The notes beneath the pieces are model-generated. The model made no database searches. It worked only from the letters and a program-made list of their open reading frames with translations, and had not been told where the DNA came from. This document shows positions 7,415-42,826 of a stretch of DNA of 64,000 nt, piece by piece (the stretch's first letter is position 1; each line of letters opens with the position of its first letter). The stretch is from the NCBI RefSeq assembly GCF_003018255.1, contig NZ_CP027440.1; one strand, written 5' to 3'. This DNA is from Escherichia coli (GTDB taxonomy: Bacteria; Pseudomonadota; Gammaproteobacteria; Enterobacterales; Enterobacteriaceae). The position numbers and the translations under genes were made by a program.

Positions 7415-9331
<1,917 letters not shown>

Positions 9332-15906: not shown

Positions 15907-15921
15907 TACCGTGACCCTGAA

Positions 15922-15988
15922 GGCCTGATAAGACGTGTAAAGCGTCGCATCAGGCACTATGTACAAGATGCCGGATCATGCATCCGGC
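15922..15988. repeat. REP-like palindromes between yjbB and pepE
   Basis: ggcctgataagacg...cgtcgcatcaggc and gccggatcatgcatccggc. Confidence 0.75.
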
Positions 15989-15995
15989 AATTCAC

Positions 15996-16685
15996 TTAAA
16001 AACGGTGACCCGCTTCCAGCGGAACCGCTTCTTCACCAGCCTTAAACACATAAGTGGTGTTCGGGCCACCCAGCGTTGCGTGACCTTTATTCACTGTGAT
16101 CCAGTTACCTTCCGGTAGACCAATAATTGTGAGTTCTGGCGCGACGACCAGCAGTTCGCGAATACGCTGTTCACGGGTTTCACCTTTATGGCCTTCCGGC
16201 AGCGCGTTGGTGAAGTGCGGGTTGATTTGCAACGGGAACAGATTCAGCGCATCGAAACCTTGTGGATCGACAATCGGCATATCGTTGGTGGTACGAATGG
16301 TTGGGCAAGCAAGGTTAGCGCCTGCGCTCCAGCCAATATACAGCGCGCCACGTTTCACCACGTCAGTAATGGGTGCCAGCAGCCCGCGCTCGCGGCACTG
16401 TTTCAGCAACTGGAAAGTATTCCCGCCGCCGACAATCACGATCTCAGCATTTTCAATCGCGGCAACGGGATCGACAACGCTATGAATACCGGTGACAGAA
16501 ACACCCAGCGGAGCGAGAACCGCAGCCGTTTTCGCTGTGTAATCATCCCAGGTCTGCGTTACGCCAGCGAAAGGGATAAACACCGCTGAGCGGCGACCCT
16601 GCAACTGTTCAGCAATTAGCGGCAGTGCATGTTCCAGCCAGGCTTTACCCGGCAGCGTCGAGTTACTCAATAAAAGCAGTTCCAT
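15996..16685 (-). CDS. pepE: Dipeptidase E (alpha-aspartyl dipeptidase)
   Basis: 229-aa ORF starting [28 protein letters not shown], recognised as PepE. Confidence 0.95.
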
Positions 16686-16808
16686 TACTTCTCCGGTTAG
16701 TAAGAAATCACGGAAGGCATGCTACCACTGCGAATTTAACCACTTACTGACATGGCTCACGATGTCACGTATTGCACAGGCGCTGAGACTGATGACAAAC
16801 ACAGCATT

Positions 16809-16906
16809 GCCTGATGCGCTACGCTTACCTGGCCTACCAGATAACTGCAATATATTGAATTTTCGAGATTATGTAGGCCGAATAAGGCTTCATTCCGCAT
16901 CCGGCA
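16809..16906. repeat. REP pair in the pepE-sorE spacer
   Basis: gcctgatgcgctacgcttacctggcctac and gtaggccgaataaggcttcattccgcatccggca. Confidence 0.8.
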
Positions 16907-16935
16907 TAAACAATGTGTACTTTGCCACCAATTTG

Positions 16936-16963
16936 AGCGCCCCTTAAGGCGCTGATATTTTTT
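16936..16963 (+). terminator. Terminator-like hairpin with T tract, no obvious plus-strand gene upstream
   Basis: agcgcc-ccttaa-ggcgct followed by gatatttttta; orientation is for plus-strand transcription. Confidence 0.4.
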
Positions 16964-17065
16964 ATCCTTCTCATGCAAATTGTGCTGCTTCAGCAATCAG
17001 CCGCACATCCGGTCGCGAAGTTGCCGCGGCGACCAGCCAGCGACATGCAGAGTTAAGTAGCGCGA

Positions 17066-18295
17066 TTAATCATGGGAAATTGCCTCTGCATGAGTGAGCA
17101 GATATTGCTCCGCCTCACCGGACCAGATCCCCTGATGACGCGCCAGAATTGCCGCCAGTGCTTGATCCTGAATCTGCGTGAGTGACATAAGCGGCAGGTA
17201 TTTCCCGGTATACACCAGCTTTTTGCCGCCGCCGACGGCAGGCAATTCAAGCGTGGTTTCGCCCGCGGCATTCAGCCCAAGAATATGTGTTACCACTTTT
17301 GCGGCCTGCACTTTTTTCTCTTCGATCAGTTTGACCGCCGCGCGCATGTCGTCGGTATTGCCGCCTGACGTGCCCACGTAGTGGGTAAATGCATAATGCA
17401 CATCGTAGAAATTAATTGGCGCGCTGAAATGTTTATCCTGCGGTCCGGCGAAGAAATTCAGGCAACCATCTGTCGCCAGCAAGGAAGAGGCGAGAGTCAC
17501 CAGTCCTTCATTAGGCACAAAGACGAAAATATCATCGAAGCCGTGACCGCCACTCAGCGCCATTAACGTATCAAATGCTGCATCAGTGGCATTGAGATAA
17601 TGAATCAGTGTTTGCGATTCTGATGGATAGTGCTTGCGCGCATAACTCAATTTATCGTTGTCGGTATCGGTAATGACGAGCAGCGACGGGTTAACGGGTC
17701 CATGCAGCGCATAATCAATCGCCAACAGTCCCATTGGTCCGGTGCCGCCGAGGATCAGCGTGCGCCCTTGCGGGCGAATCCCCATCGTGTGGTTATAACT
17801 ACCTTCCTGAAGATGATAGTTGGCGTTGAACGCGCCAATCACGCAGGAAAGCGGTTCAACCAGCGAGCCTTCAAAATAGGTTTCGCCGTCGTATGCCAGC
17901 AGGCAATCTTGTTCCATAACCTCATTTGGGATAACCACATGTGTGGCTTCACCGCCCACCCACGGGAAGGAGTAGCCGGGGCAGTCCGGGCGGTCGGGGA
18001 GTTGCAGGTTGGCCTGAATCACATAACGCTGACCCGGCTGGAATTTGTGCTGCCACTTTTTACCCACGGCCAGAATATCGCCGCAAAACTCGTGGCCGAT
18101 GATGATGGGGTTGGTCGCCACATCGTCGGGTACTTTTTTATGGTTTTCACCCAGATTGGCCTCTTTCCAGGAAGAGAGGCACAGGCTGTCGGTGACCACC
18201 GTCGCGAGGATTTCATCCTCCTGCATTTCAGGAAGATCAAAGGTTTCCAGGCGTAAATCACGTTTACCATAAAGACGCAGAGCTGTTGTTTTCAT
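17066..18295 (-). CDS. sorE: L-sorbose-1-phosphate reductase (zinc-dependent alcohol dehydrogenase family)
   Basis: ORF-track 17066..18307; start taken at MKTTALRLYGKRDLRLETFDLPEMQ. Medium-chain dehydrogenase features and last position in a sorCDFBAME-ordered operon. Confidence 0.85.
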   Translation of the reverse strand: MKTTALRLYGKRDLRLETFDLPEMQEDEILATVVTDSLCLSSWKEANLGENHKKVPDDVATNPIIIGHEFCGDILAVGKKWQHKFQPGQRYVIQANLQLPDRPDCPGYSFPWVGGEATHVVIPNEVMEQDCLLAYDGETYFEGSLVEPLSCVIGAFNANYHLQEGSYNHTMGIRPQGRTLILGGTGPMGLLAIDYALHGPVNPSLLVITDTDNDKLSYARKHYPSESQTLIHYLNATDAAFDTLMALSGGHGFDDIFVFVPNEGLVTLASSLLATDGCLNFFAGPQDKHFSAPINFYDVHYAFTHYVGTSGGNTDDMRAAVKLIEEKKVQAAKVVTHILGLNAAGETTLELPAVGGGKKLVYTGKYLPLMSLTQIQDQALAAILARHQGIWSGEAEQYLLTHAEAISHD

Positions 18296-18346
18296 AAACC
18301 ACCTCATGTTGAGCGATGGCCCCGGCAGTCGTGCCGGGGCGAAGAA

Positions 18347-19171
18347 TCAGGACAGGAAGCCCAGCACATTGCCGATAATCCCTAAGCCAAACAGGGCGAA
18401 AATCAGCCATACCGGGTTAATTTTTTTGTTGAGCAGACGAACCATCAGTAGCGTCAGACCGAGCGCCAGCAAACCAGGGCAAAGTTGGTCGAGAATGTTC
18501 TGCACGGTCATGGTGACGGTGGAGCCATCGGCGGCATGCGTTTGTGAAACCACCAACGGTACGTTGATTGACGTCCATTTGGTGACCAGCACGCCCATCA
18601 CAAACAGTCCGAGAATCGACGCGCCTTCGGTGAGTTTTTGCAGCACATTCCCGCCCATATCGCTGACGATATTCACCCCTTTGCGAAAGCCGAGCTGTAG
18701 GCCATACCACTTCATCGCCAGACGCACCGCGTTGAAAATAAAGAAGAACAGCAGGGGGCCGAGAATGTTGCCCGAAAGTGCCAGAGATGCGCCGAGCGCG
18801 GCGGTAATCGGGCGCAGCGTTCCCCAGACCAGTGGATCGCCAACCCCTGCCAACGGTCCCATCAGGCCGACTTTGATGCCGTTAATGGTACCGTCATCAA
18901 TTTCCGCGCCGTTGGCCCGCGCCTCTTCCATGGCGGCAGTGACGCCGATGACCGGGCCACATACGGCTGGCGTGGTATTGAAGAACACCAGGTGTCGCCT
19001 GAGCGCCGCAACCTGATCCTCTTTTAATGGGTAAAGTCGCTTGATGGCGGGGATCATGTCGTAGCAAAAACCCAGCCCATGAATACGTTCAAAGTTAAAG
19101 GACGCCTGTTGCAGGTTGGAGCGCAGAAACATGTTCACCAGATCGCTGCGTGTAATTTTTCTCTGTTCCAT
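18347..19171 (-). CDS. sorM: PTS sorbose-specific EIID component
   Basis: Mannose-family IID membrane protein. Start taken at MEQRKITRSDLV (GGAG 5 nt upstream); the ORF-track start at 19201 would overlap sorA by 20 nt and lacks a Shine-Dalgarno. Confidence 0.8.
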   Translation of the reverse strand: MEQRKITRSDLVNMFLRSNLQQASFNFERIHGLGFCYDMIPAIKRLYPLKEDQVAALRRHLVFFNTTPAVCGPVIGVTAAMEEARANGAEIDDGTINGIKVGLMGPLAGVGDPLVWGTLRPITAALGASLALSGNILGPLLFFFIFNAVRLAMKWYGLQLGFRKGVNIVSDMGGNVLQKLTEGASILGLFVMGVLVTKWTSINVPLVVSQTHAADGSTVTMTVQNILDQLCPGLLALGLTLLMVRLLNKKINPVWLIFALFGLGIIGNVLGFLS

Positions 19172-19181
19172 GATGGCTCCG

Positions 19182-19979
19182 TTAATTGTCAAGTTGGTCA
19201 AGGGCGGTGGAGGCGGTGGCCTGGAGTTGAGGTTCAGCTTTACGCCACTGTGGATTTAGCTGGATGTAGACCAGGGCCATGATCACGCCGACGCCACCGA
19301 ACGCCAGCAGACTGAGATCGAGGTAGCCACCTGCGAGGAAACCGAGGAAAAAGAAAGGCATCAAATATTTCACGCCCATCATGCGAAGCACCATGGCGTA
19401 ACCGACCACCACGATAAAACCGCCAGCAATCTGCAGTCCACGGGTCACAAATTCGGGAATGGCGCTCAGCATATTGCTCACCATATCAGCGCTGACGAAC
19501 AGCGAGACAATCAGTGCCGGAATAGCAACGCGCAGTGCCTGCACGCCAAGCGCGGAGACATGCAGAATATCGAGAGTGCGAAACCGTGCTTCTTCCGCTG
19601 CTTTATCCGCCGCGTGCTGGAACACTACGGTGATGGTACGGGCAAACACCGTCAGCACCTGGCCTGCCGCAGCCACAGGCAACGCGATGGCGATTCCGGT
19701 GGCGATGCTTTGCTGACCAACGATAACCAGAATGGCGGAGATTATGCTGGCGAGTGCAGAATCCGGAGATTGCGCCGCGCCGACGTTCATCCAGCCGAGA
19801 GCTATCAATTCCAGCGTACCACCGAGCATAATTCCGGTTTTTAAATCACCGAGAATTAAACCAATCACCGTACAGGCAATTAACGGACGATGAGTCTGAA
19901 ATTCATCCAGCACGCTGCCCATTCCGGCAATACAGGAAAAAAGAAATATAGCAATGATTTGTAGGGTACTTATTTCCAT
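19182..19979 (-). CDS. sorA: PTS sorbose-specific EIIC component
   Basis: 265-aa polytopic membrane protein of the mannose-family IIC type, between the IIB and IID genes. Confidence 0.88.
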   Translation of the reverse strand: MEISTLQIIAIFLFSCIAGMGSVLDEFQTHRPLIACTVIGLILGDLKTGIMLGGTLELIALGWMNVGAAQSPDSALASIISAILVIVGQQSIATGIAIALPVAAAGQVLTVFARTITVVFQHAADKAAEEARFRTLDILHVSALGVQALRVAIPALIVSLFVSADMVSNMLSAIPEFVTRGLQIAGGFIVVVGYAMVLRMMGVKYLMPFFFLGFLAGGYLDLSLLAFGGVGVIMALVYIQLNPQWRKAEPQLQATASTALDQLDN

Positions 19980-20044
19980 GATTTGTCACCTTTTAAGTGT
20001 CGTCATCCCTGCCTGTTAAAGCATATGTACACAGGCGCTATTAT

Positions 20045-20539
20045 TTAATTTGCGATTAACTGTTCGTTTATTTTGTCGATAATATTGATTGAGGGATCTG
20101 ACGCTACGACGCGTAAATCCAGTATGACGCCAAGATTATTTAACTCATGAAATGCGTTAATATCATCATCATCTAATGAAACCGCTTTGGTTAACTGTTT
20201 TTTACCGGGCCGCCAGGCCATGCCGCCAATATTCAGGGTGTCTATTTTTACCCCCTGGCGAACCATCGCTAAGGCATCCTGTGGGCGAGTGAAAAGATAA
20301 AAAACGGTTTCGTCCTGATATTGCGGGTTGTGATAAACCGCGACGGCTTTTTCAATATTGACCACGTTAACCTTCATTCCCGGTGGCGCAGCCTGACGCA
20401 ATAATGTCCGGCGCACTTCATCGTTATAAACTTCGTCATTGCAGATAATAATGTGCTGGGCATTAGCCACTTTCGACCAGACGGTAGTGACCTGGCCGTG
20501 GATCAGACGGTCATCAATGCGGGCGAGCGTAATGTTCAT
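20045..20539 (-). CDS. sorB: PTS sorbose-specific EIIB component
   Basis: 164-aa ORF with N-terminal RIDDRLIHGQV motif typical of mannose-family IIB domains. Confidence 0.88.
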   Translation of the reverse strand: MNITLARIDDRLIHGQVTTVWSKVANAQHIIICNDEVYNDEVRRTLLRQAAPPGMKVNVVNIEKAVAVYHNPQYQDETVFYLFTRPQDALAMVRQGVKIDTLNIGGMAWRPGKKQLTKAVSLDDDDINAFHELNNLGVILDLRVVASDPSINIIDKINEQLIAN

Positions 20540-20946
20540 CAGAAATCCTCCTCTGCCGTTGCCAGTTGTTTCCAGACAACGCAGGTTTGCTTTGCGATTT
20601 GCGTCAGGTGTTCACACAGTTCATCAACATTCATGCTGTGCTGGTTATCAACCAGTTCGAGCGCCAGCGGCAGAGAAAGGCCGCTGATTACCCGCAGACG
20701 AGGATTGCGCATCGCAAGCATCGCTGCCGCATTCCACGGGCTGCCGCACTGTAAATCCACGGCAATCAGCCACTCATCTTGATTGTGAATGCTTACTAAC
20801 TTTTCCAGCTTTGCTACGATGTCTCCGGCGTTTTCACCGGGCACAAATTCAACGGCTTCAACATTGGCGTTGCCGTAAACCATCTGAACCGATTCCAGCA
20901 TGGCGCAAGCTAATTTGCCGTGGGCACAAAAAATGGCGTTGACCAT
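20539..20946 (-). CDS. sorF: PTS sorbose-specific EIIA component
   Basis: 135-aa ORF of the mannose-family IIA type; AAGGAG upstream; its stop shares 1 nt with the sorB start. Confidence 0.88.
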   Translation of the reverse strand: MVNAIFCAHGKLACAMLESVQMVYGNANVEAVEFVPGENAGDIVAKLEKLVSIHNQDEWLIAVDLQCGSPWNAAAMLAMRNPRLRVISGLSLPLALELVDNQHSMNVDELCEHLTQIAKQTCVVWKQLATAEEDF

Positions 20947-20955
20947 AAAGCCTCC

Positions 20956-21762
20956 TTAGCCGCGCGTTTTGCCGCCCGCAATGTTAGTGGTTACTCCGGT
21001 GATATAGCTGGCGCGTTGAGACAGCAGATAACAAACAAAATCAGCGACTTCTGCTAATCTTCCGGCGCGCCCAATAGGAATGGCGTTTTTGGTATAGCCT
21101 TCACGCAGCTGCTCGACGGTGATATTGCGCGTCCACGCCAGCGCCTCTTCATATTCCGGCGTGCGTAGCCCGGTTTTTTCCAGAATCCCGGGCGCGATAC
21201 CGACCACACGGATGCCGTGTTTACCCAGCTCTTTCGACCAGGAGCGCGTGAAGCTATTGAGCGCGGCTTTGGTAGCGGCGTAACAGCTTTGGCCTTCTGA
21301 GCCTTCCAGTCCACTTTCTGAGGAAACATTCACAATCACGCCATCATGTTGTTTGACCATCTGTCGCGCCACCGCCTGCGACATCAGAAAAACGCCTTTC
21401 TGGTTGATATTGACCATTTTTTCGAATGCAGCTTCGTTGAGTTCATACTGCCCGGCAGGCGCTTTCTCATCGACCAGCAGACGCGGGAAATTGACCCCGG
21501 CGTTATTGACCAGACCGTCGATGCGACCAAAACGCTGGATAATTTCCGCTACCGTATGATTTACCTCTTTGGCGCTGGAAATATCGGTCGGCCAAAACTG
21601 ATAGCCTTTATGACCTTCATATTGTCCATCGCCACCGTGAATATCGACCATCTGTACATTCGCGCCTTGTGCTAATAATTCCTCTACAATCGCCAGACCA
21701 ATACCGCATGCGCCGCCGGTGACGATAATGATTTTATCCTGCAAATTTAACCACGTTTGCAT
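20956..21762 (-). CDS. sorD: Sorbitol(glucitol)-6-phosphate dehydrogenase, SDR family
   Basis: 268-aa short-chain dehydrogenase with N-terminal TGGACGIG cofactor motif and the YAATK catalytic motif. Confidence 0.87.
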   Translation of the reverse strand: MQTWLNLQDKIIIVTGGACGIGLAIVEELLAQGANVQMVDIHGGDGQYEGHKGYQFWPTDISSAKEVNHTVAEIIQRFGRIDGLVNNAGVNFPRLLVDEKAPAGQYELNEAAFEKMVNINQKGVFLMSQAVARQMVKQHDGVIVNVSSESGLEGSEGQSCYAATKAALNSFTRSWSKELGKHGIRVVGIAPGILEKTGLRTPEYEEALAWTRNITVEQLREGYTKNAIPIGRAGRLAEVADFVCYLLSQRASYITGVTTNIAGGKTRG

Positions 21763-21831
21763 AACAGACTCCTGATTTTAGATAATAGGGACCCGCCGTA
21801 ATTTTTATTACGATAAACATCGGGAAGATTT

Positions 21832-22779
21832 TTATTTCAGTAATAGTTCAGCTGTGCTGCTATTCGTTACCAGACAATTAATATATTTTCCACGCAGTGT
21901 ACCAATAATTCCGCTGTATTTTTCTTCACTCATGGCAATGCCAATGGAATACCGCGCCTGCTTTAATTTATTCATTTCGATAGAGAGTGTTTTTTCGCTC
22001 ATATTCGTTTCAACCATTGCGCCGTGAATATCAAAAAAGCGCGAGCAAATATCGCCAGCAACCTGGCGGGCATTCAGGTCGTCACTCTCTTCACCACCAT
22101 AAAACGCATGCCAGTTAGCGCCGTCGCGAATGGCCGGTGAGCCAATTCCCACCAGGGCGACATCCAGATTATCCCAGTAGGCAGAGATGGTTTTAAAGTG
22201 CTGAGACTGCATGATCCCATTACGAATTAATGGGTTATCCAGCAGAGCCGGAAAATCCGCGAGATGCGATTCCCCTTTCAGCTTCGCTGCCGCGCTGTAG
22301 GTTAATGTGTTTACGTGATAGCGGCTTTCGAGTTTACCGGACGGTCCGCCAATAATTGGTACGCAGATTAACTGCCGCGATTGCCCCGCCTGCGGCAAGT
22401 TTTCAACCAGTGCGCTCACCGCGCGACCCCAGGAAAAACCGACAATATCGCCAGGCTCCAGCAAGCGATCCAGCAGTTGCGCGCCGTGTAACCCCATCAT
22501 CGCCAGTTGAGTCTCTTCATCCTCATCATTTCCCGACACCACCACAACGTCTTTCAGGCCAAACTTTTGCTTCAGTTGCTGCTCCAGCCAGAGATTTTCG
22601 TTGTAGTCATAGTTGATGGCGATGGTGACAATTCCCTGATCGCGGCCTCGTTTAAGCAAGCGGCTGATGGTGGTGCGGTAAATACCCAGTTCGCGCGCGA
22701 TTTGCGCCTGCGTCATATCCTGTTCGTAATAGAGTTGGGCAATCTTCACAATCAAACGGATATCGTCACTGTTTTCCAT
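21832..22779 (-). CDS. sorC: Sorbose operon transcriptional regulator (SorC/DeoR family)
   Basis: ORF-track 21832..22863 begins at a TTG; start moved to MENSDDIRLIVKIAQLYYEQDMTQAQIARELGIYRTTISR (315 aa), preceded by AGGAGG. N-terminal helix-turn-helix plus sugar-phosphate binding domain. Confidence 0.85.
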   Translation of the reverse strand: MENSDDIRLIVKIAQLYYEQDMTQAQIARELGIYRTTISRLLKRGRDQGIVTIAINYDYNENLWLEQQLKQKFGLKDVVVVSGNDEDEETQLAMMGLHGAQLLDRLLEPGDIVGFSWGRAVSALVENLPQAGQSRQLICVPIIGGPSGKLESRYHVNTLTYSAAAKLKGESHLADFPALLDNPLIRNGIMQSQHFKTISAYWDNLDVALVGIGSPAIRDGANWHAFYGGEESDDLNARQVAGDICSRFFDIHGAMVETNMSEKTLSIEMNKLKQARYSIGIAMSEEKYSGIIGTLRGKYINCLVTNSSTAELLLK

Positions 22780-23126
22780 TGCCGCCTCCTGGTTCTGCAC
22801 ATTTGTGCAAATACGCTTTCTCACCGCTTGATCTGATATAACCCCATCATGAGGGCCTTTCAAAGCGATTTTTCACTCTTTGCATGGGGAGAAATAGCGC
22901 TTTCTCTTGCACATTTGTTTCTCTGCGTAGTAGTCATCAGCACAGGTGTGCAGCGATTCGTAATATGTTGATTATCCTTATTTTGCCAGGCAAATTTGCA
23001 TCGTACTTCCGGAGACACTTTTGTGATAAAAGGCGTGGCAGATCACATTTAATTTCGACGTTGCCGCATAACCCTGTTTTTCCCCGCTAAGAGGTACGGT
23101 ATATTCCGCGTTTTACAGGAGAATTT

Positions 23127-23999
23127 ATGCTGCCCGACTCATCAGTCCGTTTAAATAAATACATCAGCGAAAGCGGAATTTGCTCACGCCGCGAAGCGGA
23201 TCGCTATATCGAGCAAGGCAATGTGTTCCTTAATGGCAAGCGAGCCACCATTGGCGATCAGGTGAAACCCGGCGACGTTGTGAAAGTAAATGGTCAGTTG
23301 ATTGAACCTCGGGAAGCCGAAGATTTGGTACTTATCGCCCTGAACAAGCCCGTCGGTATTGTCAGCACCACCGAAGATGGCGAGCGCGATAACATTGTCG
23401 ATTTCGTTAACCACAGCAAACGCGTATTCCCGATTGGCCGCCTGGATAAAGACTCCCAGGGGCTGATTTTCCTCACCAATCACGGCGATCTGGTGAATAA
23501 GATCCTCCGTGCGGGTAACGATCATGAGAAAGAGTATCTGGTGACGGTCGATAAACCGATTACCGATGAATTTATTCGTGGTATGGGGGCGGGGGTGCCA
23601 ATCCTCGGGACAGTGACTAAAAAGTGCAAAGTCAAAAAAGAAGCGCCATTTGTCTTCCGCATTACCCTGGTGCAGGGGCTGAACCGTCAGATCCGTCGCA
23701 TGTGCGAGCACTTTGGTTACGAAGTGAAAAAGCTGGAACGTACGCGCATTATGAACGTCAGTTTAAGCGGCATTCCGCTGGGGGAGTGGCGCGATTTAAC
23801 CGACGATGAGTTAATCGACCTCTTTAAGCTCATCGAAAATTCCTCTTCCGAGGCAAAACCTAAAGCGAAGGCCAAACCGAAAACGGTAGGCATCAAACGT
23901 CCAGTCGTTAAGATGGAAAAAACGGCGGAAAAAGGCGGTCGCCCGGCGTCCAACGGTAAGCGTTTTACCTCGCCGGGGCGCAAAAAGAAGGGGCGTTAA
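23127..23999 (+). CDS. rluF: 23S rRNA pseudouridine synthase F
   Basis: 290-aa ORF with N-terminal S4 domain, RluA/RsuA-type catalytic region and Lys-rich tail; recognised as RluF. Confidence 0.93.
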
Positions 24000-24272
24000 T
24001 CAGCGCCTGCCGCGCGTCGACGTATTTGCTGACCAGCTAAATGACGCCTCAGGATCCGGTTTATAAGCCTGCTTTTTCTTCAATTGGCGGGCTTTTTTCG
24101 CTTCAGCCTCACGCTCGACCATTAATTTATCGATGTACTCTTTCTTAATGCTGTTGGTTTCGGAGTTGGTCAGTACGCGACCATGCGCAATCCGCGCCCG
24201 ATCCAGCAGTGTTTTAAGTTCACGCTGCTCGCGTTCAGTCATCTCTTTTTGGGTAATACGGGGGAGTGCCAT
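24000..24272 (-). CDS. yjbD: Uncharacterised protein YjbD (DUF3811)
   Basis: 90-aa ORF convergent with rluF; sequence recognised as YjbD. Confidence 0.85.
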   Translation of the reverse strand: MALPRITQKEMTEREQRELKTLLDRARIAHGRVLTNSETNSIKKEYIDKLMVEREAEAKKARQLKKKQAYKPDPEASFSWSANTSTRGRR

Positions 24273-24481
24273 GATGGTGCCCTCAGTGAGCCAGAGAGTT
24301 CAGTGTACGGGAATTCGTTTGCGAGCAGAACTGATAATATTCATTTTGCCTTCTCTTAACTATTTATCTCTTTCGATAATTAATTAGAGATGTAGATAAA
24401 AAAATTAAAGGCAATTATTCTCCGATAAAGACGTTGGTTAACAGAGTACAGGCTCGTTTATTTATGGGCATAATGACAAGA

Positions 24482-24516
24482 AAAACAATACGGCCCGAAA
24501 TAATGTCTTCCGGGCC
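24482..24516 (-). terminator. lysC intrinsic terminator
   Basis: On the minus strand, hairpin ggcccg...cgggcc followed by a T tract (plus-strand A run at 24481-24490), 10 bp past the lysC stop. Confidence 0.75.
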
Positions 24517-24525
24517 ATACTGTGT

Positions 24526-25875
24526 TTACTCAAACAAATTAAAATGCAGCTTCTGCACCACCTGCTCGGCATCTTCGCCGGGCACCAGGAAGCACAGGTT
24601 ATGGCTGGATGCGCCGTAACAAATCATGCGAATGTTGAACGGTTCCAGTACGCCGAATACCTCTTTGCCAACGCCGCAGGCTTTTGACAGGTCATTGCCA
24701 ATCAACGCGACCAGCGCCAGACCTTCCTCCACTTCTACCCGGCATAGTGCAGACAGCTCCATCAGCAGAGATTGCGTCAGCAAGGTATCGCCAGTGGAGG
24801 TTGAACCGGTGGTATCAAGGGTTAATGCCACGCTCACTTCTGACGTGGTGATTAAGTCTACCGAAATATTATGCCGCGCGAGGATGCCGAAAACTTCCGC
24901 GAGGAAACCGCGAGAATGCAGCATATTCAGGCTGTGCAAAGTGAGCAGAGTCTGATTGCGACGAAGCGCCAGCGCGCGGAACAGCGGCGGATTTTCAGTT
25001 TTATTGCACACCAGCGTACCACCTGCGCGTGGGTCTTTGCTGGAGCCGACAAAGACCGGGATATCGCTGCGTACTGCGGGTAGCAACGTTGCCGGATGCA
25101 GTACTTTTGCACCAAAAGTTGCCATCTCTGCCGCTTCGGCAAACGCGATTTCATCAATGCGTTTTGCTGCGGAAACCACGCGTGGATCGGTGGTGTAGAT
25201 GCCCGGGACGTCGGTCCAGATATCAACACGAGATGCGTGTAAAGCCTCCGCCAGCAAGGCTGCCGTATAATCGCTGCCTCCACGGCCAAGCGTCGTTGTA
25301 CGACCTTTATTTTCGCTGCCGATAAATCCCTGGGTGATCACTAAGCCTTCATTGAGGCGTGGGAGCAGTTGCAGCGCGGCCAGTTCCGCCAGCGCGGCTA
25401 CATCTGGCTCTGCACGACCAAATCGGTCGTTGGTACGCATCACTTTACGTACATCAAACCATTGTGCCTGAACATCGCGTTCGCGCAGGATCTCGACAAA
25501 CAGCAGGGTCGACATCAGCTCGCCGTGGCTGACCAGTTCATCTGTCAGGGCCGGAGACGTTGCCAGCGCCGCCGCTTCTGCCAGAACAGTAATGTTCTCC
25601 AGCAGACGTTCAATCTCTTCACGGATAACGTTCGGGTAACGCAGACGTTCCAGAATGGCAAACTGGATGTTGCGAATAGCGTCGAGTTTTTCGAATCGCT
25701 CGCCAGGTTCCAGTCCTTCAGCTAAAGCGACCAGCAGATTAGTGATACCAGCAGAAGCCGAGAGGACAACTAAACGCACGTTGGCATCAGAAAGCACAAT
25801 ATCAGCGCTGCGGTTCATGGCGTCAAAATCAGCTACGCTGGTACCGCCAAATTTGGAGACAACAATTTCAGACAT
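24526..25875 (-). CDS. lysC: Lysine-sensitive aspartokinase III
   Basis: 449-aa ORF starting MSEIVVSKFGGTSVADFDAMNRSADIVLSD, recognised as LysC. Confidence 0.96.
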   Translation of the reverse strand: MSEIVVSKFGGTSVADFDAMNRSADIVLSDANVRLVVLSASAGITNLLVALAEGLEPGERFEKLDAIRNIQFAILERLRYPNVIREEIERLLENITVLAEAAALATSPALTDELVSHGELMSTLLFVEILRERDVQAQWFDVRKVMRTNDRFGRAEPDVAALAELAALQLLPRLNEGLVITQGFIGSENKGRTTTLGRGGSDYTAALLAEALHASRVDIWTDVPGIYTTDPRVVSAAKRIDEIAFAEAAEMATFGAKVLHPATLLPAVRSDIPVFVGSSKDPRAGGTLVCNKTENPPLFRALALRRNQTLLTLHSLNMLHSRGFLAEVFGILARHNISVDLITTSEVSVALTLDTTGSTSTGDTLLTQSLLMELSALCRVEVEEGLALVALIGNDLSKACGVGKEVFGVLEPFNIRMICYGASSHNLCFLVPGEDAEQVVQKLHFNLFE

Positions 25876-25959
25876 AACTACCTCGTGTCAGGGGATCCAT
25901 TTTCAGCCTTGGCACAAGGGAAGAGCGGAAGACGGGTGGGCGCAGAGCGATACTTCGCT

Positions 25960-26160
25960 ACTATTTTCACCCAGAAGTGCTCCACCACTTGCGAAACGCC
26001 CGACTGCGAACGCTTCTGGTGACAACCCAGGGGATTCAGCCCCTGTAGCCGATGATGAACGTGGCCAGCCGTTCAATCACCTCGGCGATGCACCCCCTCA
26101 GGTGTTATCACAGGACTGGCTCCTCCAACACCGTTACTTGGGCAACGCGCCTCTTCTGGC
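25960..26160 (-). ncRNA. Lysine riboswitch (L box) in the lysC 5' leader
   Basis: About 300-nt untranslated leader upstream of lysC; minus-strand sequence GAAGAGGCGCGTTGCCCAAGTAACGGTGTTGGAGGAGCCAGTCCTGTGATAACACCTGAGGGGGTGCATCGCCGAGGTGATTGAACGG... is recognised as the E. coli lysC leader. Aptamer boundaries approximate. Confidence 0.85.
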
Positions 26161-26399
26161 CTGCGCTAGCGCAGGTAGTACATTTATAAATAAAGGGTGA
26201 GCGGGGCGGTTGTCAACGATGGGGTCATGCGGATTTTTCATCCACTCCTGGCGGTCAGTAGTTCAGCTAATAAATGCTTCACTGCGCTAAGGGTTTACAC
26301 TCAACATTACGCTAACGGCACTAAAACCATCACATTTTTCTGTGACTGGCGCTACAATCTTCCAAAGTCACAATTCTCAAAATCAGAAGAGTATTGCTA

Positions 26400-28049
26400 A
26401 TGAAAAACATCAATCCAACGCAGACCGCTGCCTGGCAGGCACTACAGAAACACTTCGATGAAATGAAAGACGTTACGATCGCCGATCTTTTTGCTAAAGA
26501 CGGCGATCGTTTTTCTAAGTTCTCCGCAACCTTCGACGATCAGATGCTGGTGGATTACTCCAAAAACCGCATCACTGAAGAGACGCTGGCGAAATTACAA
26601 GATCTGGCGAAAGAGTGCGATCTGGCGGGCGCGATTAAGTCGATGTTCTCTGGCGAGAAGATCAACCGCACTGAAAACCGCGCCGTGCTGCACGTAGCGC
26701 TGCGTAACCGTAGCAATACCCCGATTTTGGTTGATGGCAAAGACGTAATGCCGGAAGTCAACGCGGTGCTGGAGAAGATGAAAACCTTCTCGGAAGCGAT
26801 TATCTCCGGTGAGTGGAAGGGTTATACCGGCAAAGCAATCACTGACGTAGTGAACATCGGGATCGGCGGTTCTGACCTCGGCCCGTACATGGTGACCGAA
26901 GCACTGCGTCCGTACAAAAATCACCTGAACATGCACTTTGTTTCTAACGTCGATGGGACTCACATCGCGGAAGTGCTGAAAAAAGTAAACCCGGAAACCA
27001 CGCTGTTCCTGGTAGCATCTAAAACCTTCACCACTCAGGAAACCATGACCAACGCCCATAGTGCGCGTGACTGGTTCCTGAAAGCGGCTGGTGATGAAAA
27101 ACACGTTGCGAAACACTTTGCGGCGCTTTCCACCAATGCCAAAGCCGTTGGCGAGTTTGGTATTGATACTGCCAACATGTTCGAGTTCTGGGACTGGGTT
27201 GGCGGCCGTTACTCTTTGTGGTCAGCAATTGGCCTGTCGATTGTTCTCTCCATCGGCTTTGATAATTTTGTTGAACTGCTTTCTGGCGCACACGCGATGG
27301 ACAAGCATTTCTCCACCACGCCTGCCGAGAAAAACCTGCCTGTCTTGCTGGCGCTGATTGGCATCTGGTACAACAATTTCTTTGGCGCGGAAACTGAAGC
27401 GATTCTGCCGTATGACCAGTATATGCACCGTTTCGCGGCGTACTTCCAGCAGGGCAATATGGAGTCCAACGGTAAGTACGTTGACCGTAACGGTAACGTC
27501 GTGGATTACCAGACTGGCCCGATTATCTGGGGTGAACCCGGCACTAACGGTCAGCACGCGTTCTACCAGCTGATCCACCAGGGAACCAAAATGGTACCGT
27601 GCGATTTCATCGCCCCGGCTATCACCCATAACCCGCTCTCTGATCATCACCAGAAACTGCTGTCTAACTTCTTTGCTCAGACCGAAGCGCTGGCGTTTGG
27701 TAAATCCCGCGAAGTGGTTGAGCAGGAATATCGTGATCAGGGTAAAGATCCGGCAACGCTTGACTACGTGGTGCCGTTCAAAGTGTTCGAAGGTAACCGC
27801 CCGACCAACTCTATCCTGCTGCGCGAAATCACTCCGTTCAGCCTGGGTGCGTTGATTGCGCTGTATGAGCACAAAATCTTTACTCAGGGCGTGATCCTGA
27901 ACATCTTCACCTTCGACCAGTGGGGCGTGGAGCTGGGTAAACAACTGGCGAACCGTATTCTGCCAGAGCTGAAAGATGATAAAGAAATCAGCAGCCACGA
28001 TAGCTCGACCAATGGTCTGATTAACCGCTATAAAGCGTGGCGCGGTTAA
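26400..28049 (+). CDS. pgi: Glucose-6-phosphate isomerase
   Basis: ORF-track 26394..28049 begins at a TTG; start moved to [24 protein letters not shown] (549 aa), the known Pgi N-terminus. Confidence 0.96.
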
Positions 28050-28062
28050 TCATTGTCGATAT

Positions 28063-28139
28063 GTAGGCCGGATAAGGCGTTCACGCCGCATCCGGCAACC
28101 GATGCCTGATGCGACGCGGTCGCGTCTTATCAGGCCTAC
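28063..28139. repeat. REP element downstream of pgi
   Basis: gtaggccggataaggcgttcacgccgcatccggcaa...gcctgatgcgacgc...gcgtcttatcaggcctac. Confidence 0.9.
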
Positions 28140-28206
28140 AGGTCGATGCCGATATGTACATCGTATTCGGCAATTAATACATAGTACGATTGATTAAATA
28201 GCCTTA

Positions 28207-28240
28207 AAAACAATGCCGACTATAAGTCGGCATTGTTTTA
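28207..28240 (+). terminator. Intrinsic terminator after pgi
   Basis: Near-perfect palindrome aacaatgccgact-ata-agtcggcattgtt followed by ttta. Confidence 0.8.
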
Positions 28241-28546
28241 TCAGATAAATCCTCTTGTCTGTCATTTAACGAAAATCATACCGTGAGGTTAATCCTAAAA
28301 TAGATTTTTAATCGTGATTGATTTCGGAAAATACGCAGAGTAATTACTTTTTATTTTATTTTAACTTCATGATTTTTAATCTTATTTATATATAAGTCAA
28401 AGCTTATATTTGATATTCATTCCAATTGTCCTAAAACTCCATCACTAATTCCCTGCGCCGTAATTCGCATGCTTTAGTTGTGTATACTCGATCCCGCCCG
28501 AAATGTTTTGGGTAAATCTCCATTCATTCAATGAAGGGAAATTGTT

Positions 28547-28789
28547 ATGAAAAAAGTTCTGTATGGCATTTTTGCCATATCTGCGCTTGCGGCGACTTCT
28601 GCGTGGGCTGCACCTGTACAGGTGGGCGAAGCGGCAGGATCGGCAGCAACGTCGGTTTCGGCGGGTAGTTCCTCCGCGACCAGCGTCAGCACCGTAAGCT
28701 CGGCGGTGGGTGTCGCGCTCGCGGCAACCGGTGGCGGTGATGGTTCTAATACCGGGACCACCACAACCACGACCACCAGTACCCAGTAA
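28547..28789 (+). CDS. yjbE: Small secreted Ser/Thr/Gly-rich protein YjbE
   Basis: 80-aa ORF with signal peptide [21 protein letters not shown] and a low-complexity body ending in a poly-Thr run; first gene of yjbEFGH. Confidence 0.85.
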
Positions 28790-28903
28790 TAAAGTATGTA
28801 TCCCCAAAATAATTCGAGTCATCGCATCTGAAGCTTGAAGTATGAAGGGGATTAACCATAACCACACTCCGGTGTGGTTATTCTGCCCCTCTGGAGAAGA
28901 GTC

Positions 28904-29542
28904 GTGAAGCGACCTGCACTCATTCTTATCTGCCTGCTATTACAGGCCTGTTCAGCCACGACTAAAGAGCTGGGCAATTCACTATGGGACAGTCTGTTCG
29001 GTACGCCAGGCGTACAGCTGACGGACGATGATATTCAAAATATGCCCTACGCCAGCCAGTACATGCAGCTTAATGGCGGGCCGCAGTTATTTGTGGTGCT
29101 GGCCTTCGCTGAAGACGGACAACAAAAATGGGTCACTCAGGATCAGGCCACCCTTGTCACACAACATGGTCGTCTGGTGAAGACTTTGCTTGGCGGCGAC
29201 AACCTGATTGAAGTGAATAACCTTGCCGCCGACCCGCTGATTAAACCCGCACAAATCATTGATGGTGCAACCTGGACGCGCACGATGGGCTGGACCGAGT
29301 ACCAGCAGGTACGCTACGCCACCGCGCGCTCAGTCTTCAAATGGAATGGCACCGATACCGTCAAAGTCGGCAGCGATGAAACCCCGGTTCGCGTGCTGGA
29401 CGAAGAAGTCTTCACTGACCAGGCGCGCTGGCATAACCGCTATTGGATCGACAGCGAAGGGCAAATTCGCCAGTCGGAACAGTATCTCGGCGCGGATTAC
29501 TTCCCGGTGAAAACCACCCTCATCAAGGCGGCAAAACAATGA
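28904..29542 (+). CDS. yjbF: Lipoprotein YjbF
   Basis: ORF-track 28874..29542; start moved to the GTG giving (M)KRPALILICLLLQACSATTKE, a lipoprotein signal with lipobox LLQAC (212 aa). Confidence 0.8.
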   Translation: MKRPALILICLLLQACSATTKELGNSLWDSLFGTPGVQLTDDDIQNMPYASQYMQLNGGPQLFVVLAFAEDGQQKWVTQDQATLVTQHGRLVKTLLGGDNLIEVNNLAADPLIKPAQIIDGATWTRTMGWTEYQQVRYATARSVFKWNGTDTVKVGSDETPVRVLDEEVFTDQARWHNRYWIDSEGQIRQSEQYLGADYFPVKTTLIKAAKQ

Positions 29543-30276
29543 TTAAACAAACTATTGTCGCGTTGCTTTTGAGTGCGGGGGCGTCATCAGTCTTCGCGGC
29601 GGGAACCGTCAAGGTGTTCAGCAATGGCAGCAGTGAGGCCAAAACGCTGACGGGCGCAGAGCATTTAATCGATCTGGTAGGCCAACCGCGGCTGGCAAAC
29701 AGCTGGTGGCCCGGAGCGGTGATTAGCGAAGAGCTGGCCACGGCGGCTGCATTGCGTCAGCAGCAGGCGTTGCTGACACGGCTGGCAGAACTGGCTGCAG
29801 ATTCCAGCGCTGACGATGCCGCTGCGATTAACGCCTTACGCCAGCAAATTCAGGCGTTGAAGGTGACGGGCAGGCAAAAAATCAATCTTGATCCTGATAT
29901 CGTCCGCGTTGCCGAACGCGGTAACCCGCCGTTGCAGGGCAACTACACGCTGTGGGTCGGAACGCCGCCGTCCACGGTCACGTTGTTCGGGCTTATCAGT
30001 CGTCCTGGCAAGCAGTCATTCACTCCAGGTCGCGACGTGGCGAGCTATCTCTCTGACCAGAGCCTGCTCAGCGGTGCGGATCGCAGCTACGCGTGGGTGG
30101 TTTACCCGGACGGACGCACGCAAAAAGCGCCGGTGGCTTATTGGAACAAGCGTCACGTAGAGCCGATGCCCGGCAGCATTATTTATGTTGGCCTCGCGGA
30201 CTCCGTCTGGAGTGAGACACCTGATGCCCTTAACGCCGACATTCTTCAGACTCTGACGCAGCGGATACCCCAATAA
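29539..30276 (+). CDS. yjbG: Periplasmic protein YjbG
   Basis: ORF-track 29443..30276; start moved to [22 protein letters not shown] (signal peptide, 245 aa); ATGA overlap with the yjbF stop. Confidence 0.82.
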
Positions 30277-32372
30277 TGAAAAAAAGACATCTGCTTAGCT
30301 TACTGGCGCTGGGCATTAGCACAGCTTGCTACGGCGAAACATATCCTGCGCCCATTGGTCCGTCGCAATCGGATTTCGGTGGCGTAGGATTATTACAAAC
30401 GCCCACCGCGCGCATGGCGCGGGAAGGGGAGCTGAGCCTGAACTATCGCGATAACGATCAGTACCGTTATTACTCAGCTTCAGTGCAACTCTTCCCGTGG
30501 CTGGAAACAACGCTGCGCTATACCGATGTGCGCACCCGGCAGTACAGCAGCGTCGAAGCGTTCTCTGGTGATCAAACGTATAAAGATAAAGCCTTCGATC
30601 TCAAACTGCGTTTGTGGGAAGAGAGTTACTGGCTGCCGCAAGTGGCGGTTGGTGCGCGGGATATCGGCGGTACGGGGCTGTTCGATGCGGAATATCTTGT
30701 CGCCAGCAAAGCCTGGGGGCCATTCGATTTTACGCTCGGCCTGGGCTGGGGATATCTGGGCACCAGCGGTAATGTGAAAAATCCGCTCTGTTCGGCCAGT
30801 GACAAATATTGCTATCGCGATAACAGCTACAAACAAGCGGGATCTATCGACGGCAGCCAGATGTTCCACGGTCCGGCCTCACTGTTTGGCGGCGTGGAAT
30901 ACCAGACGCCCTGGCAACCGCTGCGCCTGAAACTGGAGTATGAAGGCAATAATTATCAGCAGGATTTTGCCGGTAAGCTGGAGCAAAAAAGTAAGTTTAA
31001 CGTCGGGGCGATTTATCGCGTTACCGATTGGGCCGACGTTAACCTTAGCTATGAACGTGGCAACACTTTTATGTTTGGCGTCACGCTGCGCACCAACTTT
31101 AACGATCTGCGCCCGTCCTACAACGATAACGCCCGCCCGCAATATCAACCGCAACCACAGGATGCCATTTTGCAGCATTCGGTGGTGGCGAATCAGTTAA
31201 CGCTGTTGAAATACAACGCCGGACTGGCCGATCCGCAGATCCAGACGAAAGGCGATACGCTGTATGTCACCGGCGAGCAGGTGAAATATCGTGATTCGCG
31301 TGAAGGGATCATCCGTGCTAATCGGATCGTGATGAACGATCTGCCGGATGGGATCAAAACGATCCGCATTACGGAAAATCGCCTTAACATGCCGCAGGTG
31401 ACGACGGAAACCGATGTCGCCAGCCTGAAAAATCATCTCGGCGGAGAGCCGTTGGGCCACGAAACGACGCTGGCGCAAAAACGCGTCGAGCCAGTGGTTC
31501 CGCAGTCCACCGAGCAGGGCTGGTATATCGACAAATCACGCTTTGATTTCCATATCGATCCGGTGCTGAACCAGTCGGTCGGTGGCCCGGAAAACTTTTA
31601 CATGTATCAGCTGGGCGTGATGGGAACGGCGGATTTGTGGCTGACGGACCATCTGCTGACCACCGGCAGCCTGTTTGCTAACCTTGCCAACAACTACGAC
31701 AAGTTTAACTACACTAATCCACCGCAGGACTCGCACTTACCGCGCGTTCGTACCCATGTGCGCGAGTATGTGCAGAACGATGTCTATGTGAATAACCTGC
31801 AAGCCAACTACTTCCAGCATCTGGGCAACGGCTTCTACGGTCAGGTCTACGGAGGTTATCTCGAAACCATGTTTGGCGGTGCGGGGGCAGAAGTGTTGTA
31901 TCGCCCGCTGGACAGCAACTGGGCGTTTGGTGTGGATGCCAACTACGTTAAACAGCGCGACTGGCGTAGTGCAAAAGATATGATGAAATTCACCGACTAC
32001 AGCGTGAAAACCGGACATCTGACCGCCTACTGGACGCCATCTTTCGCTCAGGATGTGTTAGTGAAAGCGAGCGTCGGGCAGTATCTGGCTGGGGATAAAG
32101 GCGGCACGCTGGAGATCGCCAAACGCTTTGATAGCGGCGTGGTAGTGGGGGGCTATGCCACGATCACGAATGTTTCGAAAGAGGAGTACGGCGAAGGGGA
32201 CTTCACCAAAGGCGTGTATGTCTCTGTACCGCTGGATCTCTTCTCGTCTGGTCCGACACGCAGCCGTGCGGCAATTGGCTGGACGCCGCTGACGCGTGAC
32301 GGTGGTCAGCAACTTGGGCGTAAGTTCCAGTTGTATGACATGACCAGCGACCGTAGCGTCAATTTCCGCTAA
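30276..32372 (+). CDS. yjbH: Outer-membrane lipoprotein YjbH
   Basis: 698-aa ORF with signal peptide and lipobox (LGISTAC); last gene of yjbEFGH; start overlaps the yjbG stop (TAATG). Confidence 0.88.
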
Positions 32373-32380
32373 GTCATGGG

Positions 32381-32416
32381 AAAGGTGCCAGTTTTCGCAC
32401 TCACTGGCACCTTTAT
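32381..32416 (+). terminator. Intrinsic terminator after yjbH
   Basis: Hairpin aaaggtgccag...ctggcaccttt followed by attctt. Confidence 0.7.
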
Positions 32417-32418
32417 TC

Positions 32419-32667
32419 TTAATGGCCTGTCGAGCCATCAGGAACGCAGTTCACCCCCGGTTTGCGATCTGGTGTGTAAAGGCGAAAACATTCTGTCTTC
32501 CTGTCCGTCGATATCGGTTGCAGGTCTGGTTGCCTGAGCGACTGGGCCATCATTGGGCTGGAGACATTGCTTTGCGGTAGGTCGGCTTTATCAGCAGTAC
32601 CGAGCGGACCAGCATAAGCAGGAAGAACAGAGACTGATAACATCAAAGCAGCAAAATAAGGCTTCAT
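32419..32667 (-). CDS. yjbT: Small periplasmic protein YjbT
   Basis: ORF-track 32419..32697 (92 aa); start preferred at MKPYFAALMLSVSVLPAYA (signal peptide; GGTGG upstream). The longer start cannot be excluded. Confidence 0.6.
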   Translation of the reverse strand: MKPYFAALMLSVSVLPAYAGPLGTADKADLPQSNVSSPMMAQSLRQPDLQPISTDRKTECFRLYTPDRKPGVNCVPDGSTGH

Positions 32668-32911
32668 TTTTACCACCTTTATCAGGTTACGTTTCATTTG
32701 TTCCAGAGGAACATTGTCGATTTTTCGCGCATTGCTGGTGGCTGGGAATCACCTGAATGGGTGATTTTTTTGGGCTGTGTGTTTTGCCAGATGCGACGTT
32801 GATGGGAGATGCCCACTTAATTGAGCTGAACAAAACATACACAAAAAATATAGATCTCCGTCACATTTTTGCGTTATACAGGAAGCTCGCCACTGTGAAG
32901 GAGGTACTGCT

Positions 32912-33322
32912 ATGACGTCACTCTCTCGTCCGCGCGTGGAGTTTATCTCCACCATTTTGCAGACCGTACTCAATCTTGGCCTGTTGTGCCTCGGCCTGAT
33001 TTTGGTTGTCTTCCTCGGCAAAGAAACGGTGCATCTGGCTGATGTGCTGTTCGCGCCAGAACAAACCAGTAAATATGAGCTGGTAGAAGGGCTGGTGGTT
33101 TACTTTCTCTATTTCGAATTTATCGCGCTGATTGTGAAGTACTTTCAGTCAGGTTTTCACTTCCCGCTACGTTACTTTGTCTATATTGGGATCACCGCCA
33201 TTGTGCGCTTGATCATCGTCGATCATAAATCGCCACTGGATGTGTTGATCTACTCGGCAGCGATCCTGTTACTGGTGATCACCCTGTGGCTGTGTAATTC
33301 GAAACGGCTGAAGCGGGAGTAA
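32912..33322 (+). CDS. psiE: Phosphate-starvation-inducible inner membrane protein PsiE
   Basis: 136-aa ORF starting [34 protein letters not shown], recognised as PsiE; AGGAGG upstream. Confidence 0.93.
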
Positions 33323-33345
33323 AAAAAGGCGCTCCGTGGAGCGCC
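33321..33345. terminator. Terminator between convergent psiE and malG
   Basis: aaaaaaa then hairpin ggcgctcc-gt-ggagcgcc; the A tract gives a T tract on the minus strand, so it mainly serves malG. Confidence 0.7.
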
Positions 33346-33415
33346 GAATAACAGTCACAAGTTGGGATAACGTAAGTTGAGGGTGCAGCGGCATAACATT
33401 GGCAGAACAACATCT

Positions 33416-34306: not shown

Positions 34307-34320
34307 TTTTGTTATCTCCC

Positions 34321-35865: not shown

Positions 35866-35885
35866 GGGGTTCTTCCTCATTCCAG

Positions 35886-36008
<123 letters not shown>

Positions 36009-36018
36009 TTTCACAGCA

Positions 36019-37573
<1,555 letters not shown>

Positions 37574-38689: not shown

Positions 38690-38730
38690 GCACCCCACAA
38701 AACACACAAAGCCTGTCACAGGTGATGTGA

Positions 38731-40101
<1,371 letters not shown>

Positions 40102-40112
40102 TAGCAAAACCT

Positions 40113-40242
<130 letters not shown>

Positions 40243-42820: not shown

Positions 42821-42826
42821 TGATGT

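Follow-up and report, generated by a model that had tools for sequence, protein, structure and literature searches.

What occupies the space between pepE and rluF in Escherichia coli strains that differ from K-12? The stretch of DNA that raises this question (hereafter the window) comprises 64,000 nucleotides of contig NZ_CP027440.1 from E. coli assembly GCF_003018255.1. A preliminary description, made from the sequence alone, had placed a seven-gene L-sorbose utilisation operon, sorCDFBAME, at this point. Having compared the locus with protein families, solved structures, complete E. coli genomes and related species, we are highly confident that it is the chromosomal E. coli L-sorbose operon, which is orthologous to Klebsiella pneumoniae sorCDFBAME and lies here, intact, in its normal position flanked by pepE and rluF. 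The locus lies near metH/iclR, and the site is empty in K-12.

Seven intact genes fill the pepE-rluF interval

The open reading frame (ORF) map placed the pepE-rluF intergenic interval at window 16686-23126 (6441 bp). Seven uninterrupted ORFs fill it, all on the minus strand and in the order sorC-D-F-B-A-M-E. The flanking genes were called with the NCBIfam PepE and RluF equivalogs, both above cut-off, and the starts of the sor genes were corrected against orthologues; the resulting gene lengths equal the RefSeq annotations of strains SCU-171 and CFT073.

23127-23999, plus strand: rluF, right flank, divergent from sorC (NCBIfam NF007784, 607 bits)
21832-22779, minus strand: sorC, SorC-family regulator, first gene of the operon (315 aa)
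20956-21762, minus strand: sorD, D-glucitol(sorbitol)-6-phosphate dehydrogenase of the short-chain dehydrogenase/reductase (SDR) family (268 aa)
20539-20946, minus strand: sorF, phosphotransferase system (PTS) EIIA (135 aa)
20045-20539, minus strand: sorB, PTS EIIB (164 aa)
19182-19979, minus strand: sorA, PTS EIIC (265 aa)
18347-19171, minus strand: sorM, PTS EIID (274 aa)
17066-18295, minus strand: sorE, predicted L-sorbose-1-phosphate reductase, a zinc-type medium-chain dehydrogenase/reductase (409 aa)
15996-16685, minus strand: pepE (dipeptidase E), left flank (NCBIfam NF003642, 357 bits against a cut-off of 156)

Translation of sorC begins at an ATG at 22779, with a ribosome binding site, AGGAGG, at 22786-22791. 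The stop codon of sorF and the start codon of sorB share one base (TGATG), as the preliminary description had claimed, and the remaining gaps, in operon order, are 69, 9, 65, 10 and 51 nt. The ORF map and the family assignments given below agree with its further claim of seven minus-strand genes in the Klebsiella order, an order that we also found in at least 30 enterobacterial loci. The seven genes would form a single transcript, starting in the spacer between sorC and rluF.

The encoded proteins are those of a sorbose pathway

Two products could be compared with solved K. pneumoniae structures, and for both the proposed Klebsiella orthology was borne out. SorC is identical to K. pneumoniae SorC (PDB 2W48) at 273 of 315 positions (86.7%), end to end from residue 1 to 315, and at 74 of the first 75 residues, which form the DNA-binding domain. 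SorB matches the K. pneumoniae sorbose IIB (PDB 1NRZ) at 138 of 160 positions (86.3%), scoring 302 bits compared with 169 bits for mannose IIB; it also exceeds the cut-off of TIGR00854 (222 bits) and carries the histidine motif RIDDRLIHGQV. SorF scored 148 bits with TIGR00824 (cut-off 98), matched IIA proteins of the mannose family in PDB, and begins MVNAIFCAHG, with the histidine motif His9-Gly. SorA reached 423 bits with TIGR00822 (EII-Sor; cut-off 340) and SorM 469 bits with TIGR00828 (cut-off 293). All four components of a mannose-family PTS are thus present above cut-off, and both IIA and IIB have an N-terminal phospho-histidine motif.

The two dehydrogenases were assigned on different grounds. 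SorD scored 498 bits with NCBIfam NF004817, 'sorbitol-6-phosphate dehydrogenase subunit' (cut-off 304), and retains the motifs TGGACGIG15 (TGxxxGxG) and YAATK161 (YxxxK). SorE contains the Pfam domains ADH_N and ADH_zinc_N of zinc-type medium-chain dehydrogenases, and the motifs Cys39, His68-Glu69, EPLS147 and GTGPMG184. Among solved structures, sorbitol dehydrogenase and ketose reductase come closest to it, and the Cys / His-Glu / Glu ligand pattern aligned with theirs. SorE is also 98.5% identical to CFT073 SorE, named L-sorbose 1-phosphate reductase in RefSeq. The NCBIfam, PDB and Pfam comparisons together confirm the earlier listing of a SorC regulator, an SDR enzyme, IIA, IIB, IIC and IID components and a zinc-dependent dehydrogenase.

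The PTS models that our proteins pass are specific only to the subfamily level ('mannose/fructose/sorbose'), and SorF has no close solved homologue (best match 54 bits). We therefore considered whether the cluster might be a mannose-family PTS for mannose/fructose, N-acetylgalactosamine/galactosamine, fructoselysine or glucoselysine. Equivalogs for N-acetylgalactosamine and galactosamine (Aga) systems returned 70-191 bits against cut-offs of 130-500 (AgaF 70 versus 130, AgaW 147 versus 300, AgaE 168 versus 500, PRK11425 110 versus 180); these scores, far below cut-off, do not place the PTS subunits in that sugar family. The best solved IIB match is the sorbose-specific one, the cluster also holds the pathway-specific SorE and SorD and a SorC orthologue, and the CFT073 orthologue, when cloned, allows growth on sorbose (PMC2831201). 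With this evidence, a substrate other than sorbose is barely credible. E. coli ManXYZ resembles the window system in having mannose-class IIA, IIB, IIC and IID, and SorA and SorM pass mannose-type subfamily models. In ManX, however, IIA and IIB are fused, whereas in the window they are separate polypeptides whose cluster is linked to SorE, SorD and SorC; the PRK15088 IIAB equivalog gave 62 and 208 bits against a cut-off of 400.

The locus corresponds to the published E. coli sor operon

Each of the seven Sor proteins equals its counterpart among the products of CFT073 c4981-c4987 in length and shares 95.6-98.8% identity with it (SorM 97.8%, SorA 97.4%). Cloning of c4981-c4987 into DH5alpha conferred growth on L-sorbose (PMC2831201), and the primers used for that cloning match the window exactly at 17036-17065 and through a 24-nt core at 23098-23121. 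CFT073 carries the same seven genes at the same site (iclR-metH-yjbB-pepE / sor / rluF-yjbD), a regulatory spacer of 347 bp that is 98.8% identical to that of the window, and, between sorE and pepE, the same ~380-bp scar of a further gene, sdhL (described below). The differences are allelic only, amounting to 1.6-6.1% of nucleotides and largest in sorF. K. pneumoniae sorCDFBAME (Sprenger & Lengeler; Wehmeier) agrees in gene order and pathway, and other Klebsiella species have the same neighbouring genes and 74-95% protein identity; at the nucleotide level the Klebsiella operon differs more, with ~78-85% identity to the window.

The pathway scheme goes back to Sprenger & Lengeler 1984, as cited in PMC2831201, and is given in summary in PMC13410766. 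According to this summary, L-sorbose would be taken up and phosphorylated by the four-subunit mannose-family PTS (SorF as IIA, SorB as IIB, SorA as IIC and SorM as IID) to yield L-sorbose-1-phosphate. SorE would reduce this intermediate to D-glucitol-6-phosphate, which SorD would then oxidize to fructose-6-phosphate, a product that enters glycolysis. SorC, the product of the first gene, would repress the operon without sorbose and activate it with sorbose; SorC is said to activate as well as repress (PMC12817954). For ST131/ST648, the same study reported that sorbose induces all seven sor genes and described a sorE knock-out phenotype; it also placed knock-out and knock-in phenotypes on record (PMC12817954).

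The existence of CFT073 orthologues and of published cloning, induction and knock-out data means that the interpretation in the preliminary description is supported and that the biology is already known. Its statement that this is a known accessory locus of E. coli was right: the locus had been published as the E. coli sor operon (PMC2831201).

The sor operon and a short filler are alternative alleles of one site

In K-12 MG1655, pepE and rluF are adjacent and divergent, separated by a spacer of 211 bp compared with the 6441 bp of the window. Alignment to the MG1655 interval gave BLAST junctions at window 16767-23091, such that 6325 bp replaces 95 bp in K-12 (MG1655 locus L004, 2725-2819). The statements that ~6.4 kb lies between the two genes here, that they are neighbours in K-12, and that K-12 lacks the sor genes all held on inspection of the MG1655 interval. 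The spacer is shared with K-12 on its pepE-proximal side:

16686-16766: pepE-proximal spacer common to K-12 (80 of 81 nt identical by BLAST and alignment)

On the rluF side, a finer multiple alignment moved the limit of homology to ~57-66 nt from the rluF ATG. These rluF-proximal ~57-66 nt of the K-12 spacer are of the Citrobacter/Klebsiella type, not the type found in sor+ E. coli. About 60 nt of the K-12 filler matched neither the sor segment by local alignment nor any of 84 related loci by BLAST.

We then assessed how often each state occurs among 5426 complete E. coli genomes. The whole sor interval was present at the pepE-rluF site in 2865 (53%). A K-12-type filler occupied the site in 2557, and 2549 of these showed 99% identity or more to the K-12 sequence across 101 bp. 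The two states were mutually exclusive and together account for 5422 genomes; therefore, they act as two alleles of one site. In a published survey, sor was carried by more than 86% of genomes in every phylogroup apart from two sister groups, A (9.6%) and B1 (12.1%) (PMC12817954). The flanking haplotypes of rluF and pepE did not sort by sor status; the window rluF is 98.2% identical to that of sor-minus O104:H4 and 96.0% identical to that of K-12.

Two further observations concern the window lineage and its flank. None of the 5426 complete genomes exceeded 99.0-99.1% identity to the window in the segments tested (16686-23126 and 24100-44000), and the lineage is thus not closely represented in this set. 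The rluF stop directly abuts yjbD (window 23999/24000), with no spacer, as it does in CFT073, SCU-171 and O104:H4. In K-12 the two genes are separated by an additional 132 bp (MG1655 locus L004, 3728-3859), a putative insertion of the repetitive extragenic palindromic (REP) type.

Absence from K-12 probably reflects loss

The preliminary description was worded as though the operon had been inserted. The 6.4 kb is extra sequence relative to K-12; the direction of change that this wording implied did not hold up equally well. In a cross-species survey, one genome per species was scanned with SorE, yielding 80 loci. The order yjbD-rluF / sorCDFBAME / variable spacer / pepE-yjbB recurred in E. whittamii, E. 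albertii and other Escherichia, in Pseudocitrobacter, and in Citrobacter, Klebsiella, Raoultella, Enterobacter and Cedecea. Nucleotide identity to Citrobacter and Klebsiella was 74-86% for the sor genes and 79-83% for the flanking genes. The sor genes are therefore as diverged as their flanks, a pattern that vertical inheritance at a fixed site would produce.

Marks of mobility were not apparent. We found no tRNA, integrase or insertion sequence at the sor locus, where the ORFs are only metabolic or regulatory, and the junctions showed no shared k-mer, flanking repeat or microhomology of at least 7 nt. The G+C content of the sor interval (51.2%) is not shifted from that of the rest of the window (52.0%). 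We rejected an integrative genomic island because the locus lacks a tRNA, an integrase and a G+C shift. Cross-genus synteny at background divergence, together with this lack of mobile-element marks, leads us to favour loss in the K-12 lineage over gain in the window lineage. On this view, which we infer to be probable, Enterobacteriaceae ancestrally carried the operon at this site and K-12 lost it secondarily.

We weighed this against the possibility that horizontal transfer brought the 6.3 kb into a K-12-like spacer as an island, with the empty site ancestral for E. coli. Such an acquisition would fit the variable presence of sor (53% of complete genomes) and the K-12 filler, which keeps Citrobacter/Klebsiella-type sequence next to rluF, unlike sor+ E. 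coli. Pseudocitrobacter shows, in addition, that the sor block can move by homologous exchange: in three loci (L006, L007 and L077), yjbD-rluF-sorCDFBAME is 85-93% identical to window 17066-24272, whereas pepE, yjbB and lysC are 80-82% identical. This pattern suggests that a yjbD-rluF-sor block may have been exchanged between Escherichia and Pseudocitrobacter lineages. However, the site is occupied at background divergence both within Escherichia (E. albertii, E. whittamii and others) and in the five genera listed above from Citrobacter to Cedecea. It has no integrase, tRNA, direct repeats or G+C shift, and carriage is above 86% outside phylogroups A and B1 (PMC12817954). We consider acquisition unlikely and retain loss in the K-12 lineage as the preferred polarity.

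Homologues of sorE with 53-65% identity adjoin sorB, sorA and sorM homologues in Enterococcus (loci L034 and L036), Gilliamella (L037-L047) and a Clostridia metagenome-assembled genome, Anaerostipes (L049); therefore, the module of PTS plus reductase reaches well beyond Enterobacteriaceae. In Gilliamella, a sorC-like gene lies downstream of sorE.

The sorE-pepE spacer contains the remnant of an eighth gene

The preliminary description listed no feature between sorE and pepE. Its gene interval was right; the spacer itself proved to contain a bacterial interspersed mosaic element (BIME) and the remains of a gene, sdhL, encoding a shikimate-5-dehydrogenase-like protein.

16809-16906: BIME of two inverted REP units (16809-16837 and ~16873-16906) with a 35-nt linker
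16936-16953: G+C-rich hairpin, 9 nt beyond the former stop codon of sdhL (terminator scan and sequence)
16962-17073, minus strand: sdhL remnant, ~110 bp (alignment to E. whittamii, locus L005)

The REP unit matches the consensus with one mismatch, was also detected as an inverted repeat, and has a second copy at 42864. The sdhL remnant still has its ATG (17073), which overlaps the sorE stop, but also a stop at codon 7; the junction of an internal deletion of ~701 bp lies at 17017|17016. In E. whittamii the gene is intact (L005, 11223-12035): it encodes 270 aa, starts 8 nt before the sorE stop, and its product scores 462 bits with the NCBIfam shikimate 5-dehydrogenase model NF009202 (cut-off 306). 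The hairpin scores as an intrinsic terminator on the plus strand only; it is therefore at most a possible end or stabilizer of the sor transcript.

Of the species-level loci retrieved, 28 have a full-length sdhL after sorE; they range from Escherichia to Serratia. The Klebsiella oxytoca-group loci likewise keep it downstream of sorE, whereas it is deleted in the window. Among the complete E. coli genomes, 177 of 5426 retain the gene (177 of the 2865 that are sor+). A recent study found sdhL to be present and sorbose-induced in ST648 only and treated it as a lineage-specific insertion (PMC12817954). The cross-genus data suggest instead that sdhL may be ancestral and was then lost. On balance we lean, with some reserve, towards a fuller account, in which the seven-gene operon is a reduced form of an ancestral eight-gene sorCDFBAME-sdhL (PRK12550, shikimate-dehydrogenase-like), the ST648 'insertion' is the retained ancestral state, and the role of sdhL is linked to sorbose catabolism. 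In UBA3516, sdhL is split (L009, 11223-12024).

An Rfam search at E <= 1 returned nothing inside the sor locus, and a chance RNase P match elsewhere. On the other side of pepE, the yjbB-pepE spacer holds a REP-like element at 15919-15989, with copies at ~7453-7578, 28103, 35922 and 40152; it gave a sub-threshold Rfam naRNA4 match on both strands (42 bits compared with a gathering score of 59.5).

Conserved candidate regulatory sites upstream of sorC

We aligned 19 sorC-rluF spacers (mean column identity 75%; window 22780-23126) and found invariant blocks that hold their distance to sorC in 12 further loci (31 in all). These 12 include Serratia, Erwinia, Pantoea and Mangrovibacter, in which rluF is not the neighbour.

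22797-22808: palindrome GCACAAATGTGC, candidate SorC operator (repression), invariant in the 19 aligned and 12 further loci
22835-22843, minus strand: invariant block GGTTATATC in the alignment, candidate -10 region
22909-22916: half-site AAATGTGC, of which CAAATGTGCAA is invariant (spacer alignment)
22940-22951: palindrome GCACACCTGTGC (GCAC-N4-GTGC), candidate SorC operator, CAC-N4-GTG core at 22941-22950
22990-22999: conserved palindrome GCAAATTTGC in the spacer alignment, no role assigned
23016-23025: palindrome CACAAAAGTG (CAC-N4-GTG) in the spacer alignment, candidate SorC operator
23029-23050: CRP-like site AAATGTGATCTGCCACGCCTTT, left half perfect against the consensus, 16 of 22 positions matching overall

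The first palindrome, GCACAAATGTGC, has its CAC-N4-GTG core at 22798-22807 and sits between the -10-like block and the ribosome binding site. A TTGAAA at 22858-22863 lies 17 nt upstream of GGTTATATC. Candidate transcription starts fall ~7 nt downstream of 22835-22843 or close to 22965. Sites of the form GCAC-N4-GTGC are rare: the whole 64-kb window contains three, two of them in this spacer. Since SorC-family tetramers bind paired palindromic half-operators (PMC11229326), the spacer palindromes are the obvious candidates for SorC sites. SorC would act through the CAC-N4-GTG palindromes at 22797-22808, 22940-22951 and 23016-23025, plus the half-site at 22909-22916. The CRP-like sequence is kept in all aligned loci, including those in which sor does not lie beside rluF; we infer from its sequence that it may be a CRP site, through which catabolite control would be exerted. 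In the searchable literature we found no paper that maps these candidate SorC and CRP sites.

The best-studied relatives of SorC allow a limited comparison. Bacillus subtilis DeoR and CggR belong to the same regulator family, and window SorC matches the DeoR equivalog with E = 4.5e-63, below its cut-off. As SorC-family tetramers, such regulators bind two palindromic half-operators (PMC11229326), and the window similarly has several short palindromes around the candidate sor promoter. The candidate SorC motif, (G)CAC-N4-GTG(C), is unlike both the DeoR motif (TTGAA...TTCAA) and the CggR motif.

Is the operon active in the window strain?

Sorbose-negative strains that still carry sor DNA are reported from Shigella and from some E. 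coli (PMC2831201). In the same way, the operon could be present but cryptic in the window strain, either silent or subtly inactivated. Decay is seen in related loci: sorD is only partly matched in SCPM-O-B-8794, the GTDB 'E. coli' representative (L008, 4068-4598), and split copies of sorE occur in Escherichia sp. MOD1-EC7003 (L046, 10486-11226) and in E. albertii (L043, 1517-2257). SCPM-O-B-8794 has pepE and rluF sequences only ~92% identical and therefore may not be E. coli sensu stricto. With the closest complete genome only 99.0-99.1% identical, the window strain has no phenotyped twin. Set against this are seven full-length ORFs with no internal stops and with catalytic motifs present, and a regulatory spacer that matches CFT073 at 98.8%, its conserved blocks all intact. 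We judge a cryptic operon highly improbable.

Several observations nonetheless weigh against an intact, functional sorbose operon whose absence from K-12 is due to loss. The sorbose-negative strains just described retain sor DNA, and growth of the window strain on sorbose is a prediction. No NCBIfam hidden Markov model (HMM) scored above cut-off for SorE, for which the IolM and Tdh matches were weak and far below cut-off; because there is no dedicated HMM, the name SorE rests on orthology to CFT073 and Klebsiella. The terminator scan found no canonical terminator in the sor direction after sorE. The promoter scan found no consensus sigma-70 promoter in the sorC-rluF spacer, its hits lying only inside sorC and sorB coding sequence; the lack of a strong consensus promoter in the spacer fits an activator-dependent sor promoter. 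Finally, a simple deletion from the present-day sor+ haplotype would not yield the K-12 filler, and for that reason the polarity of the indel is inferred from distribution only.

Implications

The present analysis establishes the gene content, order and integrity of the locus, its catalytic motifs, its orthology and its distribution in the population. The original observation was correct and correctly read, and what it describes is already-known biology. The sor locus itself offers little that is new, being a textbook strain-variable catabolic operon, and here it mainly marks the strain as not K-12-like and probably not of phylogroup A or B1. The side results are of modest value: loss in K-12 is favoured over gain, an eighth, presumably co-transcribed gene that is deleted in most E. 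coli has left a scar, and candidate SorC and CRP sites are conserved. As refinements, the indel polarity, the sdhL scar and the candidate operators are small and do not amount to new biology.

Recent work ties the operon to virulence and competitive fitness in high-risk lineages of E. coli (PMC12817954, PMC13410766). Efforts to map the sor promoter and operators could start from the conserved SorC and CRP candidates. If borne out, the history proposed for sdhL, the CAC-N4-GTG palindromes and the CRP-like site would together provide a testable model for the regulation and evolution of the sor operon.

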